Program-made: the position numbers and the translations under genes
Origin: an uncultured Candidatus Saccharibacteria bacterium
Lineage (GTDB): Bacteria > Patescibacteriota > Minisyncoccia > Portnoybacterales > UBA2143
NCBI GenBank assembly: GCA_964596615.1
Contig: CAZQUN010000003.1
Location: 2,550 to 66,549 of the forward strand
Reading direction: 5' to 3'
DNA length: 64,000 bases
Notes under the pieces: model-generated
What the model was told of the DNA's origin: nothing
What the model saw: the letters and a program-made list of their open reading frames with translations, nothing else
Databases searched by the model: none
Shown here: positions 12,531 to 30,878 of the stretch, one piece after another
How the letters are laid out: every line of letters begins with the position of its first letter
Numbering within the stretch: position 1 is the stretch's first letter

Positions 12531-13523
12531 TTACTTTTTTAAAAACTCAGCTGCTTTCTCAGGTTCAATTGTAGAAATTTCCATGCCGGCTCCTAATTCA
12601 AAACCAGCCATAATTGATGTCTTGGGCAGAATATTCAAATGCCAGTGATAATGTTCATGTCCCTGGTCGTCCCCCGGCGCAGTGTGGAAATAGAAATTGT
12701 AGGCCGGATCTTTTAATTTGGTATAGATTCTGTTAAGAGCAACTCGAAAAGCATCAGCAAAAAGTTCTTTTTCCTTTTCTGTCATTTTTTCGAAATAGGG
12801 TTGGTGTTTCTTTGGATAAACCCTGACTTCAAATGAAACCTGGGGAGCAAAGGGAGAAAGAACGACAAATTCATCATTCTGATAAATTATTCTTCTTTTA
12901 TCCTTAATATCCCATCCAATCATAGAGCAGTAAACACATTTTTTATGCTTCTGGTAATAATTATCAGCGCCGTCCAGACTACTGCGCAAATCCGGGTCAA
13001 GAACCGGAATAGCAATTAATTGGGAATGAGGGTGAGCAATTGAAGCCCCGGCTTCCTTGCCATGATTATGAAAAATTGAAACGTATTTAATCAGTTCTTT
13101 ATCAATTAAATCTAAATACCTTTTTTGATATAAATCAATAACTAATTTAATTTCTTGGTTTGTCATCTGGGCCATCTGTTTTTTGTGGTCGGATGTAATA
13201 ATGACCTCGTGAAAACCAATTCCATCCATTTTCCTATTCGGTCCTTCTTCTTTTTCATTCAAAGAATCCCCTTTTGAAAGAGCCGGGAAATCATTCGGAA
13301 TGGATAAAACAAACCAGGAACCATCTGGTTTGTTTAATGTTAGAACTGATTTATCCAGAATTTTTGGCTGACAAAAAGGACATTTCTCAGGCGAAACATC
13401 GTCCCTTATTCTTTTCTCTTCGGCAAAGGTTTCCGGCCGTCTCGCCCGGCCAGTGGCAATAACGACCCAGTCATTAGAGACCAGGTCAAGCCGAAGTTCT
13501 GATGGAAATCTATCCTTTATCAT
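12531..13523 (-). CDS. galT: Galactose-1-phosphate uridylyltransferase (HIT superfamily, GalT branch)
   Basis: CPFC zinc motif and HPHSQLIAIP (HxHxQ) motif; 330 aa. Confidence 0.8.
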   Translation of the reverse strand: MIKDRFPSELRLDLVSNDWVVIATGRARRPETFAEEKRIRDDVSPEKCPFCQPKILDKSVLTLNKPDGSWFVLSIPNDFPALSKGDSLNEKEEGPNRKMDGIGFHEVIITSDHKKQMAQMTNQEIKLVIDLYQKRYLDLIDKELIKYVSIFHNHGKEAGASIAHPHSQLIAIPVLDPDLRSSLDGADNYYQKHKKCVYCSMIGWDIKDKRRIIYQNDEFVVLSPFAPQVSFEVRVYPKKHQPYFEKMTEKEKELFADAFRVALNRIYTKLKDPAYNFYFHTAPGDDQGHEHYHWHLNILPKTSIMAGFELGAGMEISTIEPEKAAEFLKK

Positions 13524-14286
13524 ATTTCCCTCTAATTAAATTCCATTTAATCTTAAAAAGTTCTTTAAAAGTATTCAAATATCCTTTTAAATTAACCCGG
13601 CTGTCAGGAGAATTTATCCAATTAACCGGAATTATTCCAATCTTGTATCCTAGTTTCCTGGCTAGAGCCAGGGATTCAATATCAAAACCCCAGCGGTCAA
13701 TTTTAAGTCGGGAAAAAATATCTTCGGTTGCCTTTTGGCTAAAAGCCTTGAATCCGCACTGGGTATCCCAGATTCCCGGTACCGCTACTAATTGAATCAA
13801 AAGGTTTCCTAGATTGCCTAATTGTCTTTTAAGAAATGACTGGGGAACGGCCTGTTTCGCTTCTTTGGCATCTTTTTTATCCCGGGAGCCAATAACAATC
13901 TGATGACCTTCGTTAAAAAGGGGTATCATTTTCTCAAAATGCTCTATGGTTGTCGCATTATCAGCATCCATAAAAAGACGGATTTCTCCTTTAGCCTCCA
14001 GCATCCCCTGTTTAACAACCCAGCCTTTGCCATGATTTTTCTCGTTATCAATCAATCTCAAATTCTTAATTAATTCAGAGAATTTACGGACTATTCCGGA
14101 AGTGTTATCCGGCGAACCATCATTAACAACAACAATCTCATAACTATACTTCTGCTCGCTCAAATACTGGTCAATGTCTAATAGGGTTTTAGTAATTCTT
14201 TTTTCTTCCCGATAAGCCGGGATAACAACAGATAAATATATTTTTTTCATATCTTGTATTATACAATAGTTTCCATTAACATACAA
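13510..14286 (-). CDS. Glycosyltransferase family 2 (polyprenol-phosphate glycosyltransferase-like)
   Basis: LSVVIPAYREEKRI N-terminus and a DxD-type region (MDAD). Confidence 0.8.
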   Translation of the reverse strand: MYVNGNYCIIQDMKKIYLSVVIPAYREEKRITKTLLDIDQYLSEQKYSYEIVVVNDGSPDNTSGIVRKFSELIKNLRLIDNEKNHGKGWVVKQGMLEAKGEIRLFMDADNATTIEHFEKMIPLFNEGHQIVIGSRDKKDAKEAKQAVPQSFLKRQLGNLGNLLIQLVAVPGIWDTQCGFKAFSQKATEDIFSRLKIDRWGFDIESLALARKLGYKIGIIPVNWINSPDSRVNLKGYLNTFKELFKIKWNLIRGKYDKG

Positions 14287-15270: not shown

Positions 15271-15282
15271 AAAAAGAAAGGG

Positions 15283-15330
15283 CGTCCACTTTCTTCTTTA
15301 CGAAAATGGAGCCCTTTGCCCACTTAAAGA
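15283..15330. terminator. Bidirectional hairpin terminator between the miaB-like gene (+) and the small Thr/Pro ORF (-)
   Basis: GGGCgTCCA ...18-nt loop... TGGAGCCC, flanked by an A-run upstream and T-rich sequence downstream. Confidence 0.45.
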
Positions 15331-15332
15331 GT

Positions 15333-15467
15333 TTACCCTGAGTCGCGGGTAGTATCCGTCGATGTGGTCGGCGTCGTTGTTGTTGCCGTCGTGGTTGTCG
15401 GGGTTGTCGACGTCTTGGTGCCCTTTTTGCCTGTCCGCTCGGTATTCTTGGTATGATGCTCGGTCAT
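15333..15467 (-). CDS. Small Thr/Pro-rich peptide (44 aa), GC-rich, hypothetical
   Basis: Minus strand has a perfect SD AAGGAGG 6 nt before the ATG. Peptide: MTEHHTKNTERTGKKGTKTSTTPTTTTATTTTPTTSTDTTRDSG. Local GC is far above the surrounding sequence. A TTGACA-17-TAGTAT promoter lies upstream at 15550-15578. Confidence 0.45.
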   Translation of the reverse strand: MTEHHTKNTERTGKKGTKTSTTPTTTTATTTTPTTSTDTTRDSG

Positions 15468-15549
15468 GGTGTCCTCCTTTATTGTGAAGTACGTTACGGC
15501 GAAAATTCGCTAAACCAAACCTAGAAAGAACTAATACAAACTTATACTT

Positions 15550-15593
15550 ATACTACTATCCCCAAAAATCCATGTCAAAGGAACTTATCCACA
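15550..15593 (-). promoter_or_regulatory. Repeat module copy 1: sigma70-like promoter (TTGACA-17-TAGTAT) with adjacent TTATCCACA box
   Basis: Plus strand ccATGTCAAAGGAACTTATCCACAcc. Its reverse complement gives TGTGGATAA followed by TTGACA. It is 23/24 nt identical to copy 2. Confidence 0.5.
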
Positions 15594-15599
15594 CCTTAT

Positions 15600-15640
15600 A
15601 AAAAGAGAGGGCGCCATTGTTTCGCAACAGCGCCTCGTCA
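15600..15640 (-). terminator. Rho-independent terminator of the 21-aa ORF unit
   Basis: Minus strand GAGGCGC tgttgcgaaacaatg GCGCCCTC followed by TCTTTTT. Confidence 0.5.
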
Positions 15641-15720
15641 AACTAGTTGGCATGTACTAGGAGCACCGCGACCCCGGGCACTCTACCTGCCCATACCCGT
15701 ATTTGAGTCCCGTATTTGAG

Positions 15721-15786
15721 TCAAAAGTGGGTTTCATCCATGCGATCGTCGCCAGCATTTACCAACAGAACTAAAAGCTTCTTCAT
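15721..15786 (-). CDS. Very small ORF (21 aa, MKKLLVLLVNAGDDRMDETHF) with a strong SD
   Basis: AAGGAGG 7 nt upstream of the ATG on the minus strand. Followed by a tandem 13-bp repeat (actcaaatacggg x2) and a terminator. Confidence 0.35.
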   Translation of the reverse strand: MKKLLVLLVNAGDDRMDETHF

Positions 15787-15843
15787 TTTGACACCTCCTT
15801 GGTTAGGGGAGAATAAAAAAACACCGAAGAGCTTCCTTAATTA

Positions 15844-15886
15844 AATCATATCATTACTTAACTCCATGTCAAAGAAACTTATCCAC
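15844..15886 (-). promoter_or_regulatory. Repeat module copy 2: sigma70-like promoter (TTGACA-16-TATGAT) with adjacent TTATCCACA box
   Basis: Plus strand ccATGTCAAAGAAACTTATCCACAga. Shares about 45 nt of similarity with copy 1, including the flanking tAAAAAGA(r)GCGCC. Confidence 0.5.
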
Positions 15887-15894
15887 AGAATAAA

Positions 15895-16080
15895 AAGAAG
15901 CGCCGGGTTTAATATATCTTAATGATAAATGACGCTTTAAATTTGCAACCCTATTGGAAAGCGGGGTTACGGCTGCGCAAAAAAAATAAGGTTCTATGTT
16001 TTTCGAGAGCGGAATTCCGCTCTCATTGGTCCAAAGGGACCAATAAAGAAACAACAATGAAAGAACTCGATAATTAAATC
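15895..16080 (-). ncRNA. Candidate small non-coding RNA transcribed from repeat module copy 3
   Basis: Downstream of the perfect TTGACA-16-TATAAT promoter. No SD-preceded ORF. Perfect hairpins GGTCCctttGGACC and GAGAGCGGaattCCGCTCTC. T8 run. Confidence 0.3.
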
Positions 16081-16081
16081 C

Positions 16082-16127
16082 ATTATATAGATTCTAAACC
16101 TTATGTCAAGAAAAATTCATCCACATA
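16082..16127 (-). promoter_or_regulatory. Repeat module copy 3: perfect consensus sigma70 promoter (TTGACA-16-TATAAT) overlapping the miaA start codon; degenerate TCATCCACA box
   Basis: Reverse complement of 16082-16109 gives TTGACAtaaggtttagaatctaTATAAT. The miaA ATG (16103-16105) overlaps the -35 hexamer. Confidence 0.5.
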
Positions 16128-17023
16128 ATAGGTTAATTGTTATTCTCGGACCGACTGCTTCGGGCAAGTCATCTTTGGCTGTTAAATTAGCCAAAGAATT
16201 TAATGGTGAAATTATTTCAGCCGATTCAAGACAAATCTACAAGGAAATGGATATTGGTACGGCTAAAATTACCAAAAAAGAAATGGATGGCATTTCCCAT
16301 TATTTAATAGATATTGTTAAACCCAATCAAGGCTTTACTTTAGCCCAATACAAAAGAGAAGCGATAAAGATTATTAAAGATATTCAAAAAAAAGAAAAAC
16401 TTCCCTTTTTGGTTGGCGGCACCGGTTTATACATCCAATCAATTGTTGATAATCTGGAAATTCCTCAAGTTAAACCTGATAAAAAATTAAGAGAAAAACT
16501 GGAAAAGCAAGATACAAATGATTTATTCAGGCAATTAAAAAAACTGGATCCGGAGAGTATTCAATTTATTGACCGGAATAACAAAAGAAGAATTATCCGG
16601 GCCTTAGAAGTCTGTTTTTTGACACAAAAACCGTTTTCAAAGCAAAGAAAAAGAGGCCAACCTATATTTGATGTTTTACAGATCGGCATTAATGTTGAAA
16701 AAAATGAATTAGAAAAGAGAACAGAGAAAAGAACAGAAGAAATGATAAAGGAAGGTCTGGTTGAAGAAGTTAAAAAACTTCTTGAAAAATACAACCCTGA
16801 CCTCCCTTGTTTTAGCGGAATCGGCTATCAAGAGATAATTCCCTATCTTAAAGGAGAAATATCTCTTGATAAAGCCAAGGAGCTCATTGCCCGACATACC
16901 CGCCAGTATGCTAAAAAGCAAATGGTTTGGTTTAAGCGGGATAAGCGCATTCATTGGGTAAAGAGTTATCCCCAAGTAAAGAAATCAACCGAAAAATTCT
17001 TGTCTGGCGAGACGCTCTGCTGA
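16103..17023 (+). CDS. miaA: tRNA dimethylallyltransferase (tRNA isopentenyltransferase)
   Basis: P-loop LIVILGPTASGKSSLAV, IISADSRQIYKEMDIGTAK, LVGGTGLYIQS, RQYAKKQMVWFKR. No SD upstream of the ATG. Confidence 0.85.
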   Translation: MSRKIHPHNRLIVILGPTASGKSSLAVKLAKEFNGEIISADSRQIYKEMDIGTAKITKKEMDGISHYLIDIVKPNQGFTLAQYKREAIKIIKDIQKKEKLPFLVGGTGLYIQSIVDNLEIPQVKPDKKLREKLEKQDTNDLFRQLKKLDPESIQFIDRNNKRRIIRALEVCFLTQKPFSKQRKRGQPIFDVLQIGINVEKNELEKRTEKRTEEMIKEGLVEEVKKLLEKYNPDLPCFSGIGYQEIIPYLKGEISLDKAKELIARHTRQYAKKQMVWFKRDKRIHWVKSYPQVKKSTEKFLSGETLC

Positions 17024-28753: not shown

Positions 28754-28824
28754 TGCGCGGTAGAGAAGTAGTATCTCGTGAGGCCCATAACCTCAAGACC
28801 CGGGTGCAACTCCCGGCCGCGCAA
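28754..28824 (+). tRNA. tRNA-like element with CAU anticodon (non-canonical D- and T-loops; possible degenerate or initiator-like tRNA-Met)
   Basis: Folds as acceptor TGCGCGG/CCGCGCA (7 bp), U8, D-stem GAGA/TCTC, anticodon stem TGAGG/CCTCA with loop CCCATAA, T-stem CCGGG/CCCGG. Has A11:U24 but lacks G18G19. T-loop is TGCAACT. No CCA. Confidence 0.35.
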
Positions 28825-28831
28825 CTCGGAT

Positions 28832-29608
28832 ATGTTATTAAGAAGATGGACCAAAGAAGAAGAGAAAAAACTTAAACACCTCTACTTAAGAACAAAAACA
28901 CCCGTAGAGGAGATTTGTCGAATTATAGACAGATCGCCACCAGCAATTCAGAATAGATTAAAAATATTAGGATTCAAGAAACGTCGGTTTCCTATCATAG
29001 CCAGACATCCAGACAAAGTTACTCCTGCCTTAGCAAGGATTCATGCTCATATATGTGGAGATGGCTGTATGTATACCCTTAGAGAGAAAGACTCTTATGG
29101 CCCATGGGCTAAATATCGAAAAAGGGCCTATAGAACTAAGTATAATACATGTTATACTAATACCAACCCAAAGCTCCTTAAAGAATTCCGGCAAGACATA
29201 CAGGAAGTTTTTGGGATTAAAGGCAAAAAACTAAGAGATTTTGATATAAGGTTAAATTCTAAAAGAATTTGGCGATTACTTAAAGAGATGGGCGCAGGAA
29301 ATTCTCATGAATGGTCTATCCCGAAATCTATCACCCAAGGATCGTCTAATGTGAAAAAGAGTTGGATTAGGGCGTTTTTTGATGACGAGGCGTATTTCAA
29401 TGACCGAGGCAGAATCAGAGTAAAGTGCGTGAATAAAAAAGGGCTCCAGCAAATTACTAAGATATTAAATGAGTTTATTCCATGTAATCTTTTGCCGAAA
29501 AAAGGTTCGTATTGGGGAAATACTTTTTGTATAAGTATAAATAAAAAGGATGCTCCTAAATATTTCTCTAAAATAGGTTCACTTCGTTATAGTATAATGA
29601 AAAAATAA
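28832..29608 (+). CDS. Free-standing LAGLIDADG homing endonuclease (double-motif, with N-terminal HTH)
   Basis: Two LAGLIDADG-type motifs about 108 aa apart (ARIHAHICGDGCMY and IRAFFDDEAYF). N-terminal HTH-like WTKEEEKKLKHLYLRTKTPVEEICRII. The listed ORF start (28778) overlaps the tRNA-like element; MLLRRW (28832) is more likely. Confidence 0.7.
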   Translation: MLLRRWTKEEEKKLKHLYLRTKTPVEEICRIIDRSPPAIQNRLKILGFKKRRFPIIARHPDKVTPALARIHAHICGDGCMYTLREKDSYGPWAKYRKRAYRTKYNTCYTNTNPKLLKEFRQDIQEVFGIKGKKLRDFDIRLNSKRIWRLLKEMGAGNSHEWSIPKSITQGSSNVKKSWIRAFFDDEAYFNDRGRIRVKCVNKKGLQQITKILNEFIPCNLLPKKGSYWGNTFCISINKKDAPKYFSKIGSLRYSIMKK

Positions 29609-29612
29609 TCAT

Positions 29613-29686
29613 GGCGGCGTAGCTCAACTGGTTAGAGCGGGAGACTCATAAGCTCCAGGTTACAGGTTCAAGTCCTGTCGCCGCTA
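29613..29686 (+). tRNA. tRNA-Met or tRNA-Ile2 (anticodon CAU)
   Basis: Cloverleaf GGCGGCG-TA-GCTC-AACTGGTTA-GAGC... with anticodon loop CTCATAA and T-arm ACAGG-TTCAAGT-CCTGT. Resembles both E. coli elongator Met and ileX. No CCA. Confidence 0.85.
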
Positions 29687-29701
29687 CTAAAATTAAATAA
29701 T

Positions 29702-29775
29702 GGGGGCGTAGCTTAGTGGTTTAAAGCGTCTGCCTGTCACGCAGAAGATCGAGGGTTCGAATCCCTTCGTCCCCG
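29702..29775 (+). tRNA. tRNA-Asp (anticodon GUC)
   Basis: GGGGGCG acceptor, anticodon stem TCTGC/GCAGA with loop CTGTCAC, T-arm GAGGG-TTCGAAT-CCCTT, discriminator G. Confidence 0.9.
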
Positions 29776-29787
29776 CAGTTAGAAAAT

Positions 29788-29808
29788 AGCCCGTTTGGGC
29801 TGTTTTTT
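29788..29808 (+). terminator. Rho-independent terminator after the tRNA pair
   Basis: AGCCC gttt GGGCT followed by GTTTTTT. Confidence 0.6.
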
Positions 29809-29844
29809 ATTGTCTTTATTATTCTATGACTATACAATTGAATT

Positions 29845-30678
29845 ATGCCAATAAAAGTAAATAACAAAATTATTGCCATATATGGACCAACGATTTCCAA
29901 GAAAACTGGTCTGGCCGTTGATATTGCTAAATATGTTTGGGGAAAATATAATATTGAACCCGAGCTTATTTCAGCTGATTCAAGAAAAATCTACAAAGAT
30001 TTAACTATCGGACAAGTTCCTATTTGGGCACCTTATGATGGAAAAATTAAAGTCCATATGTTCAAATTTATTGATTCTTTGGAGGAATCTTTTAGTCTTT
30101 ACGGTTACAAGACTAAAACAGAAGAAATAATTGACCAGATTCATAGAAAGAATCATTTACCGATACTTTTCGGCGGAAGCGCTGTATATATTTCATCTAT
30201 ACTTGAAAATTGGAATGTGCCTGAAGATTACAATTCCGGCACGAATCACAAAAATAAGTTTGGCAAATCAAAACCCAAATATGAATATATTATCCTGATA
30301 CCAAAAACTAGAAAAACAATTCTTTTTAAAAAGATCAAAGAACATGTTGAAGAAAATTTTAGAGCTGGAATTTTAGAAGAATTAAAAAGATTAGTTAAAA
30401 AATATCAAATTAATCCGCTATCTCCTCCGACAGATAATATGTTATATAAATCCCTAGAATACAGAGAGTTTTTAGAATATTGTTTCAGAAATAAGAAAAA
30501 ACTAGAAGAATTAGACAAGAAAGATTTGAGGATAATAAAAATAAGTTCGGTCAGTAATCTAAAGAATTTTGCCAGAAGACAACTAAGATGGATTCCTAAG
30601 ATGGAGGGTAAAAAATACTTAGTTGAAAATTACCAAGAAGGAAGAGAAATTGTTGATGAATTCTTAAATCGAGATTAA
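29845..30678 (+). CDS. Isopentenyltransferase (IPT/MiaA) family paralog with degenerate P-loop
   Basis: IIAIYGPTISKKTGLAVDIA (Walker A second Gly replaced by Lys), ISADSRKIYKDLTIGQ, LFGGSAVYISSILENWNVP, RRQLRWIPK. Collinear with MiaA motifs but strongly diverged; 277 aa. Confidence 0.65.
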   Translation: MPIKVNNKIIAIYGPTISKKTGLAVDIAKYVWGKYNIEPELISADSRKIYKDLTIGQVPIWAPYDGKIKVHMFKFIDSLEESFSLYGYKTKTEEIIDQIHRKNHLPILFGGSAVYISSILENWNVPEDYNSGTNHKNKFGKSKPKYEYIILIPKTRKTILFKKIKEHVEENFRAGILEELKRLVKKYQINPLSPPTDNMLYKSLEYREFLEYCFRNKKKLEELDKKDLRIIKISSVSNLKNFARRQLRWIPKMEGKKYLVENYQEGREIVDEFLNRD

Positions 30679-30825
30679 ATTCAACGGACAAACGATGAAC
30701 CTCCCTAACCAATCCCCTAAAAGTTTTCTTATTATCCCCGCCTGCAACGCTATGTCAGCCCGCATGATTCGTGTCAGTGTGTCTGGCGGGCGTAGCATTG
30801 CGGGCAGGCCGAACAACCCCGCCAA

Positions 30826-30862
30826 TAAAAAGGCCCCTGGTGATATTACCCAGGGGCTTTTC
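30826..30862. terminator. Bidirectional rho-independent terminator
   Basis: A5-GCCCCTGG tgatattac CCAGGGGC-TTTT. Confidence 0.6.
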
Positions 30863-30878
30863 GGTTTTATAGTTCTCG

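Follow-up and report, generated by a model that had tools for sequence, protein, structure and literature searches.

The 64,000-nt window analysed here (positions 2,550 to 66,549 of contig CAZQUN010000003.1, from an uncultured Candidatus Saccharibacteria bacterium; all coordinates below are positions in the window) contains a canonical miaA gene and, at 29845–30678 on the forward strand, a second gene that encodes a MiaA-like protein. This second gene, hereafter the paralog, very probably represents a real, selected, non-canonical subfamily derived from MiaA. Its product would be a core-only, P-loop-kinase-like isopentenyltransferase (IPT) protein, i.e., a lineage-restricted MiaA offshoot with an accessory role rather than a back-up MiaA. 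As for the activity, the explanation favoured here, tentatively and with slightly less than even confidence, is a neofunctionalised N6-adenine transferase with an altered donor and an altered acceptor. It is favoured because both substrate sites appear to be rebuilt, namely the acceptor site (insertion domain and Thr54/Lys56 loop) and the donor site (Gly22, His67, and Arg217, as well as Thr24 in one clade; E. coli numbering), and yet Thr19, Asp42, Tyr47, and the P-loop Lys are kept and a new invariant Lys is gained.

The open reading frame (ORF) starts with ATG and runs through 277 codons with no internal stop. An earlier first-pass annotation, made from the sequence alone, had proposed a second, divergent MiaA paralog beside the canonical gene, and the ORF lies exactly where it was placed. 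Both the IPPT domain and the fold expected of a MiaA are present: the Pfam family PF01715 matches with 83.9 bits (cutoff 23.6), compared with 282.5 bits for the canonical copy. For the NCBIfam model TIGR00174 (miaA), however, the score of 104.3 bits is below the equivalog cutoff of 148.65, and the best-scoring stretch covers only model positions 1–115. Beyond PF01715, just two sub-cutoff matches to unrelated families are reported, and no kinase or AAA family is matched, unlike for the canonical copy. The two window proteins are 27% identical (E-value 2e-21), and profile–profile comparison of their families by hhalign gives a probability of 100%.

The AlphaFold2 model of the paralog is confident, with a mean predicted local distance difference test (pLDDT) value of 91.5. 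Its top Foldseek matches are all MiaA or Mod5 structures (3exa, 2qgn, 3d3q, and 3foz, with E-values from 4e-15 to 8e-13), and the template modelling score (TM-score) relative to the target is 0.84 for 2qgn and 3crm, which are MiaA crystal models with a disordered insertion domain. The plant adenylate IPT 3a8t ranks at a similar distance (TM-score relative to the query 0.75), and Agrobacterium Tzs is clearly further away. The main structural difference is the loss of the insertion domain, which appears as a single 48-residue hhalign gap against the canonical copy and a 52-residue gap against E. coli MiaA. The 48-residue gap falls exactly on the four insertion helices in the model of the canonical copy (residues 127–134, 138–148, 150–154, and 161–174). 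At the corresponding site the paralog model has only one helix (residues 135–139), with pLDDT of 64 over residues 131–140.

Functional residues were mapped using E. coli MiaA (from NC_000913) and 82 diverse canonical MiaAs versus 34 members of the paralog family, with residue roles taken from PMC8234997 (section 2.2) and PMC2836551. The canonical copy of the window has all 17 of the 17 mapped functional residues intact, and its predicted model includes the insertion domain. In common with MiaA (E. coli 3foz/2zm5 and B. halodurans 2qgn/3exa), the paralog has the core fold, the G-P-T...K skeleton of the P-loop (Gly17, Pro18, Thr19, and Lys23), the catalytic Asp42, Ser43, the transition-state residues Thr19 and Tyr47, the GG motif, Glu229, Tyr251, and Gln282. 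Among these, Thr19, Lys23, Asp42, Tyr47, Glu229, Tyr251, and Gln282 show little or no variation across the family: Asp45 and Tyr50 of the paralog (equivalents of Asp42 and Tyr47) are invariant, and Thr16 (Thr19) is Thr in 33 of 34 members.

The losses concern both substrate sites. The second glycine of the P-loop (Gly22) is found in 82 of 82 canonical MiaAs versus 4 of 34 family members, the others having K, N, E, or S with no preference. The broken Walker A motif that the first-pass annotation described in the paralog is therefore confirmed, and 30 of the 34 members lack this glycine: GPTISKKT does not match the GxxxxGK[ST] pattern of P-loop NTPases and kinases, and proper alignment does not restore an intact P-loop. 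The neighbouring Thr24 is retained in the window protein and replaced by Leu in the Portnoybacteria-type clade, where an Mg ligand is thereby lost. According to PMC2836551, no adenylate- or tRNA-IPT departs from the Thr/Asp/Arg triad, whose Arg corresponds to Arg217. As described in PMC8234997 and PMC2836551, this Arg stabilises the leaving diphosphate, Asp42 is the general base, and Lys56 binds tRNA. In the window protein Arg217 is replaced by His167, and in the family by H (17 members), N (7), Y (6), S (3), or W (1). MAFFT, phmmer (run against 2qgn and Mod5, 3eph), and hhalign all pair Arg217 with His167, and the replacements of Arg217 and His67 are consistent across four alignment methods. 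Additionally, His67, which binds dimethylallyl diphosphate (DMAPP), is replaced by Val70 (V, I, L, or T in the family), Thr54 by Q or P, and Lys56 by L, S, P, and others. The insertion-domain residues Arg130, Arg167, Arg170, and Glu173 are all deleted. Of the set that clamps the anticodon stem (insertion domain, Lys56, and Lys280), only the equivalent of Lys280 remains, as Arg244.

Two features are gained. Three residues past the catalytic Asp, the canonical Gln45 is replaced by an invariant Lys48 (DSRQ to DSRK), and a six-residue insertion relative to canonical MiaA carries a near-invariant KYxWGKY motif. The statement that the paralog aligns with MiaA motif for motif thus holds for ISADSRKIYKD, FGGSAVYISS, and ARRQLRW, which are all present, and fails for the 48–52-residue insertion domain, Arg217, His67, Lys56, and Thr54, which are lost. 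The window protein and its close relatives also keep Tyr115, Trp249, and the ARRQ helix. In Mod5 the equivalents of the first two, Tyr114 and Trp299, stack on A36 (PMC2836551).

A search of 5.8 billion proteins yielded 27 clusters with 35–79% identity, all 256–311 aa long and all from metagenomes or metagenome-assembled genomes (MAGs) of Patescibacteria, e.g., Candidatus Portnoybacteria. The distribution asked about in the first-pass annotation is thus that of some 30 relatives in metagenomes of Patescibacteria, the Candidate Phyla Radiation (CPR). In the family, 19 positions are invariant, including G14, P15, T16, K20, D45, K48, Y50, and Q246. When 1.84 billion representatives were searched exhaustively with a profile, few further sequences came up: about 25 score above 165 bits, and lower scores grade continuously into ordinary MiaAs. 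Close canonical homologs outnumber the family by roughly two orders of magnitude (more than 5800 at E-value <1e-60, versus 27 clusters). Among species-representative genomes, only a distant clade with 31–37% identity is present (Portnoybacteria, further Patescibacteria, and a small number of MAGs with different labels), and the window's own subclade was not found there. Two distant members, L012 (CAZCGQ010000002.1) and L013, are located on MAG contigs labelled "uncultured Gammaproteobacteria" with a local GC content of 0.38, which could reflect mislabelling, mis-binning, or a distribution beyond CPR bacteria. Database names of family members are either "hypothetical protein" or, by automatic transfer, "tRNA A37 N6-isopentenyltransferase MiaA". 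No paper on MiaA paralogs in CPR bacteria, nor one describing such a subfamily, was found in the available literature.

Both copies are under purifying selection. The ratio of nonsynonymous to synonymous substitution rates (dN/dS) is 0.071 for the paralog versus its 77%-identical relative in L003 (dS = 1.69), and 0.107 for canonical miaA versus its 74%-identical relative in L088 (dS = 1.70). L003 and L088 come from sibling samples of one JGI project. Their equal dS values are an indirect hint that both genes are also present together in a single related organism.

A neighbour-joining tree (240 columns, 100 bootstraps) was rooted with Tzs, the sequence of which matched a Ti-plasmid record at 100%. 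The paralog family together with P0041 and P0042 forms one clade with modest support (bootstrap 60). Its sister group comprises the short proteins P0035–38 and P0044. The MiaA radiation includes both groups, and Tzs is a long-branch outgroup and the most distant sequence in the tree. Regarding the phylogeny proposed in the first-pass annotation, the paralog family is thus a minor branch of the MiaA radiation, remote from Tzs. The canonical MiaA of the window branches among ordinary MiaAs of Patescibacteria. Like the paralog family, the sister group lacks the insertion domain and Arg217 and has a KY/F-x-W/F-G-K/R motif and a C-terminal helix of the YAMHQ type. In contrast to the paralog family, it keeps GPTSSGKT, DSRQ, the IGT.K loop, and mostly His67, and the paralog family thus appears to be a further step of divergence beyond it.

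Loss of the insertion domain also occurs elsewhere. The uncharacterised metagenomic proteins P0055–57, as well as P0054, have a core of about 245 aa with the same domain deletion. Unlike the paralog, however, they retain Gly22, Gln45, Lys56, His/Tyr67, Arg217, and Lys280 and group with canonical MiaAs; in these proteins the domain loss is independent and the chemistry site intact. P0054 is a MiaB::MiaA fusion in which the insertion-less MiaA follows UPF0004, radical SAM, and TRAM domains. Two further rearrangements were seen, in P0123, a MiaB::MiaA fusion with full-length MiaA, and in P0086, a MiaA split by a DUF559 domain. Because insertion-less MiaAs with a canonical site exist, a missing domain is by itself no proof that tRNA is no longer the substrate. 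The paralog family is distinguished by the loss of Arg217, His67, Lys56, Thr54, and Gly22.

From the residues that are kept and lost, a working scheme can be proposed for the favoured transferase. A flipped-out adenine would still enter the conserved channel. In the window subclade this adenine is most likely part of an RNA, because Tyr115 and Trp249, which stack on the preceding nucleotide, and the ARRQ helix are kept. The substrate would be something other than the canonical A36-A37-A38 anticodon stem-loop, and the donor would be held otherwise than DMAPP-Mg is held by the canonical P-loop, His, and Arg.

Several observations weigh against this transferase. The replacement of Arg217 by an unconserved H, N, Y, or S argues against efficient prenyl transfer, and so do the replacement of Gly22 by K, E, N, or S and the clade-specific change of Thr24 to Leu. 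As read from the alignment, these donor-site losses are equally compatible with a non-catalytic binder, and retention of Thr19 and Tyr47 could be structural. Across the whole family, moreover, Tyr115, Trp249, and the ARRQ helix vary, with only the Gln of the ARRQ invariant. Co-occurrence with canonical miaA is direct in this genome only; tblastn over the fetched loci of relatives did not find canonical miaA within their flanks. The corresponding alternative is a pseudoenzyme that binds an adenine ligand or RNA (e.g., unmodified or N6-isopentenyladenosine (i6A)-containing tRNA) in the role of a sensor, chaperone, or regulator, which is considered rather unlikely, though a serious competitor. 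It agrees with the erosion of the donor site, including the exchange of His67 for V, I, or L, and with the absence of Arg217 from the sister group as well, and strong purifying selection means function, not necessarily catalysis. Pseudoenzymes, however, usually lose chemistry residues, and here the equivalents of Thr19, Asp42, and Tyr47 and the P-loop Lys are kept in 33–34 of 34 members, down to 31–35% identity. The new invariant Lys48 beside the catalytic Asp also resembles an active-site adaptation.

The remaining explanations range from improbable to hardly credible. That the protein is still a tRNA A37 isopentenyltransferase, i.e., a redundant or subset-specific second MiaA working without the insertion domain, is improbable, although P0055–57 combine the same deletion with a fully canonical active site, the fusion of such a MiaA to MiaB with its TRAM domain in P0054 implies that an IPT core lacking a clamp can still function in the tRNA pathway, and the window protein keeps Tyr115, Trp249, and ARRQ. 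Unlike P0054–57, the paralog has no Arg217, His67, Lys56, Thr54, or Gly22; it scores under the MiaA equivalog cutoff and never adjoins miaB, the genome already has a canonical miaB–miaA pair, and the rarity of the family disfavours a housekeeping role. A cytokinin-type adenylate IPT that prenylates free AMP, ADP, or ATP, as suggested in the first-pass annotation, is very unlikely. Adenylate IPTs (HlAIPT 3a8t and Agrobacterium Tzs 2ze5, the latter type represented by PF01745) do share with the paralog an IPT fold without the anticodon-stem-binding domain; plant adenylate IPTs descend from tRNA-IPTs with a parallel loss of the extra domain (PMC2836551), thus providing a precedent for domain loss accompanied by a change of acceptor away from tRNA. 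The similarity of 3a8t to the MiaAs in the Foldseek ranking and a LOG-family gene near the relative in L003 point the same way. However, adenylate IPTs have the Thr/Asp/Arg triad, an intact GxxxxGK[ST], and lysines for nucleotide phosphates, whose basic residues occupy the Asp+1 position and those of Mod5 Tyr114 and Trp299 (PMC2836551). Of five features that define the class, the paralog has only the absent extra domain, whereas the PF01745 match, the triad Arg, the phosphate lysines, and the LOG link are missing. A PF01745 search gave no match for the paralog at E-value <0.1, compared with 38.7 bits for the canonical copy, and at Ser46, Tyr115, and Trp249 the paralog resembles tRNA-IPTs rather than HlAIPT (Lys63, Ser131, and Lys275). 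The equivalent of Mod5 Gln256 is variable, and Tzs is a distant outgroup. The paralog thus qualifies neither as a canonical MiaA nor as an adenylate IPT of the cytokinin type. A decaying duplicate or annotation artefact is hardly credible: the GC content (the lowest in the window), the degenerate P-loop, and the weak matches to family models would fit it, but some 30 relatives of similar length have an intact frame, none with frameshifts, dN/dS is 0.07, and the fold is predicted with confidence, so the pseudogene reading was rejected.

The genomic behaviour of the paralog differs from that of canonical miaA. The order miaB–miaA–gatB is retained between relatives for the canonical copy, and neighbours of the paralog are not retained. 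In eight distinct contexts, with flanking small ORFs compared all-against-all by BLAST, no recurring neighbour or partner gene was found. In L003, a LOG-family (PF03641) gene (13480–14223) lies downstream of the 77%-identical relative, three genes away, and this link is seen only in L003 and L004 (one organism), i.e., in 1 of 8 distinct contexts, which gives no general linkage to a cytokinin gene. With GC content of 0.300 and GC at third codon positions of 0.242, the paralog is the lowest of the 37 window ORFs of at least 200 aa (means 0.386 ± 0.032 and 0.348, respectively), and in 10 of 10 loci the family gene has a higher AT content than its flanks. No relative was found in IMG/VR viral contigs, PADLOC defence models gave no match, and PHROG gave one marginal match to an unrelated family; a phage or defence origin was rejected on these grounds. 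Since synteny and partner genes are lacking and the gene is AT-rich, rare, and neither viral nor defence-related, it behaves like an accessory gene of the chromosome that moves or is reshuffled. Compared with MiaA, the paralog family is thus distinguished not only by the missing insertion domain, Arg217, His67, Lys56, Thr54, and second P-loop Gly, the invariant Lys in place of Gln45, and the KYxWGKY insertion, but also by its sub-equivalog score, its lack of linkage to miaB, its rarity, and its AT-richness. Coordinates of the individual features are given in Table 1.

Table 1: Features of the paralog and of the canonical miaA locus, with positions in the window
Feature	Position	Strand	Basis or remark
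miaB-like radical-SAM gene, 5' of canonical miaA	14254..15270	+	UPF0004 + Radical_SAM; same gene order in relative L088
Canonical miaA, comparison copy	16103..17023	+	PF01715 282.5 bits, TIGR00174 320.6 bits; P-loop GPTASGKS
Terminator-like hairpin ending the upstream tRNA-Met/tRNA-Asp unit	29780..29809	+	Sets the paralog gene apart from the tRNAs
Promoter-like TTGTCT-17-TACAAT, ending 6 nt 5' of the ATG	29810..29838	+	Consensus match alone, 9/12
Gene for core-only MiaA-like protein ("mini-IPT"), 277 aa	29845..30678	+	ORF, PF01715, AlphaFold2 model, Foldseek, 27 homologs
Degenerate P-loop GPTISKKT, residues 14–21	29884..29907	+	Gly14, Pro15, Thr16, and Lys20 invariant; Lys19 in place of second Walker Gly
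KY(V/I)WGKY motif, inside 6-residue insertion between helix 1 and strand 2	29929..29949	+	Near-invariant K29, Y30, W32, G33, Y35; motif also in sister group (P0035–37)
Catalytic motif DSRKIY	29977..29994	+	Asp45 = E. coli Asp42 (general base), Tyr50 = Tyr47, Lys48 for canonical Gln; roles from PMC8234997
Altered strand 2–helix 2 loop IGQVP (canonical IGTAK)	30007..30021	+	Thr54 and tRNA-binding Lys56 lost
Short low-confidence loop, residues 124–146, at site of MiaA four-helix insertion domain	30214..30282	+	Alignment gaps, models
His167 at catalytic Arg position (E. coli Arg217 / Mod5 Arg220 / Tzs Arg138)	30343..30345	+	MAFFT, phmmer, hhalign
ARRQLRW	30571..30591	+	Equivalents of Lys280, Arg281, Gln282, and Trp285 kept in window subclade; Gln alone invariant family-wide
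GC-rich structured 3' region	30736..30870	+	Long imperfect hairpin 30736–30806, then hairpin + U-tract 30833–30870

As for the immediate surroundings, the position of the paralog directly downstream of a tRNA/LAGLIDADG locus was confirmed in the window. The order upstream of it is tRNA-Met, a LAGLIDADG-like ORF, tRNA-Met, and tRNA-Asp (28754–29776). This adjacency is not conserved: tRNA genes adjoin the paralog only in this window, not in relatives. The adjacent tRNAs (Met-CAU and Asp-GUC) have no A36 and are therefore not MiaA-type substrates. The LAGLIDADG-like ORF, flanked by the two tRNA-Met genes, matches PF14528 with 20.9 bits, under the cutoff of 22.5, and its likely true start is 28832, in agreement with the call in relative L001. 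Near the ATG of the paralog no obvious Shine-Dalgarno sequence is present, and because of this and of the promoter-like site 6 nt away the mRNA is possibly leaderless. On the 3' side, the structured region has a fold z-score of −4.3 on the forward strand and occurs once in the window; Rfam has no family for the GC-rich stretch 30680–30870, and the 30736–30870 structure was not found downstream of the 77%-identical relative in L003. Its last hairpin (30833–30870) is a probable bidirectional terminator for the paralog and a convergent 107-aa ORF.

At the canonical locus, the miaB-like gene is the partner of canonical miaA and not of the paralog. Its 338-aa product consists of UPF0004 and radical SAM without TRAM, and L088 has the same short form (327 aa). 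The two genes are separated by an ORF-free spacer of about 830 bp (15271–16102) with GC content of 0.45–0.53 at 15300–15800 versus 0.39 in the window, whereas in L088 they overlap by 4 nt. Rfam matched nothing in the spacer, which may represent either a structured RNA outside the known classes or an insertion.

A single invariant Thr/Asp/Arg mechanism is ascribed to IPT-fold enzymes, those acting on tRNA and those acting on free adenylates alike, and the paralog subfamily keeps the Thr and Asp and drops the Arg. The tRNA clamp and some of the diphosphate site are also missing from this selected subfamily, which coexists with a normal MiaA in a very small genome. The automatic name "MiaA" given to its members is probably wrong and inflates the apparent MiaA copy number. 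In its boldest form, which is doubtful at present, the paralog family with its sister group might be a new IPT-fold class that keeps adenine-N6 chemistry, uses a donor without the Arg/His/Mg-diphosphate site (e.g., dimethylallyl phosphate or another electrophile) and an RNA or nucleotide acceptor outside the tRNA anticodon loop, and hence performs a new CPR adenine modification, or else serves as a dedicated reader of A or i6A. If inactive, the protein would be the first MiaA-derived pseudoenzyme. If active, it would extend what the fold is known to do, in chemistry or in substrates, and hint at a so far unrecognised nucleic-acid or nucleotide modification in Patescibacteria. The subfamily is rare and narrowly distributed, yet, as far as its conserved residues tell, a clear departure from a supposedly universal catalytic triad.

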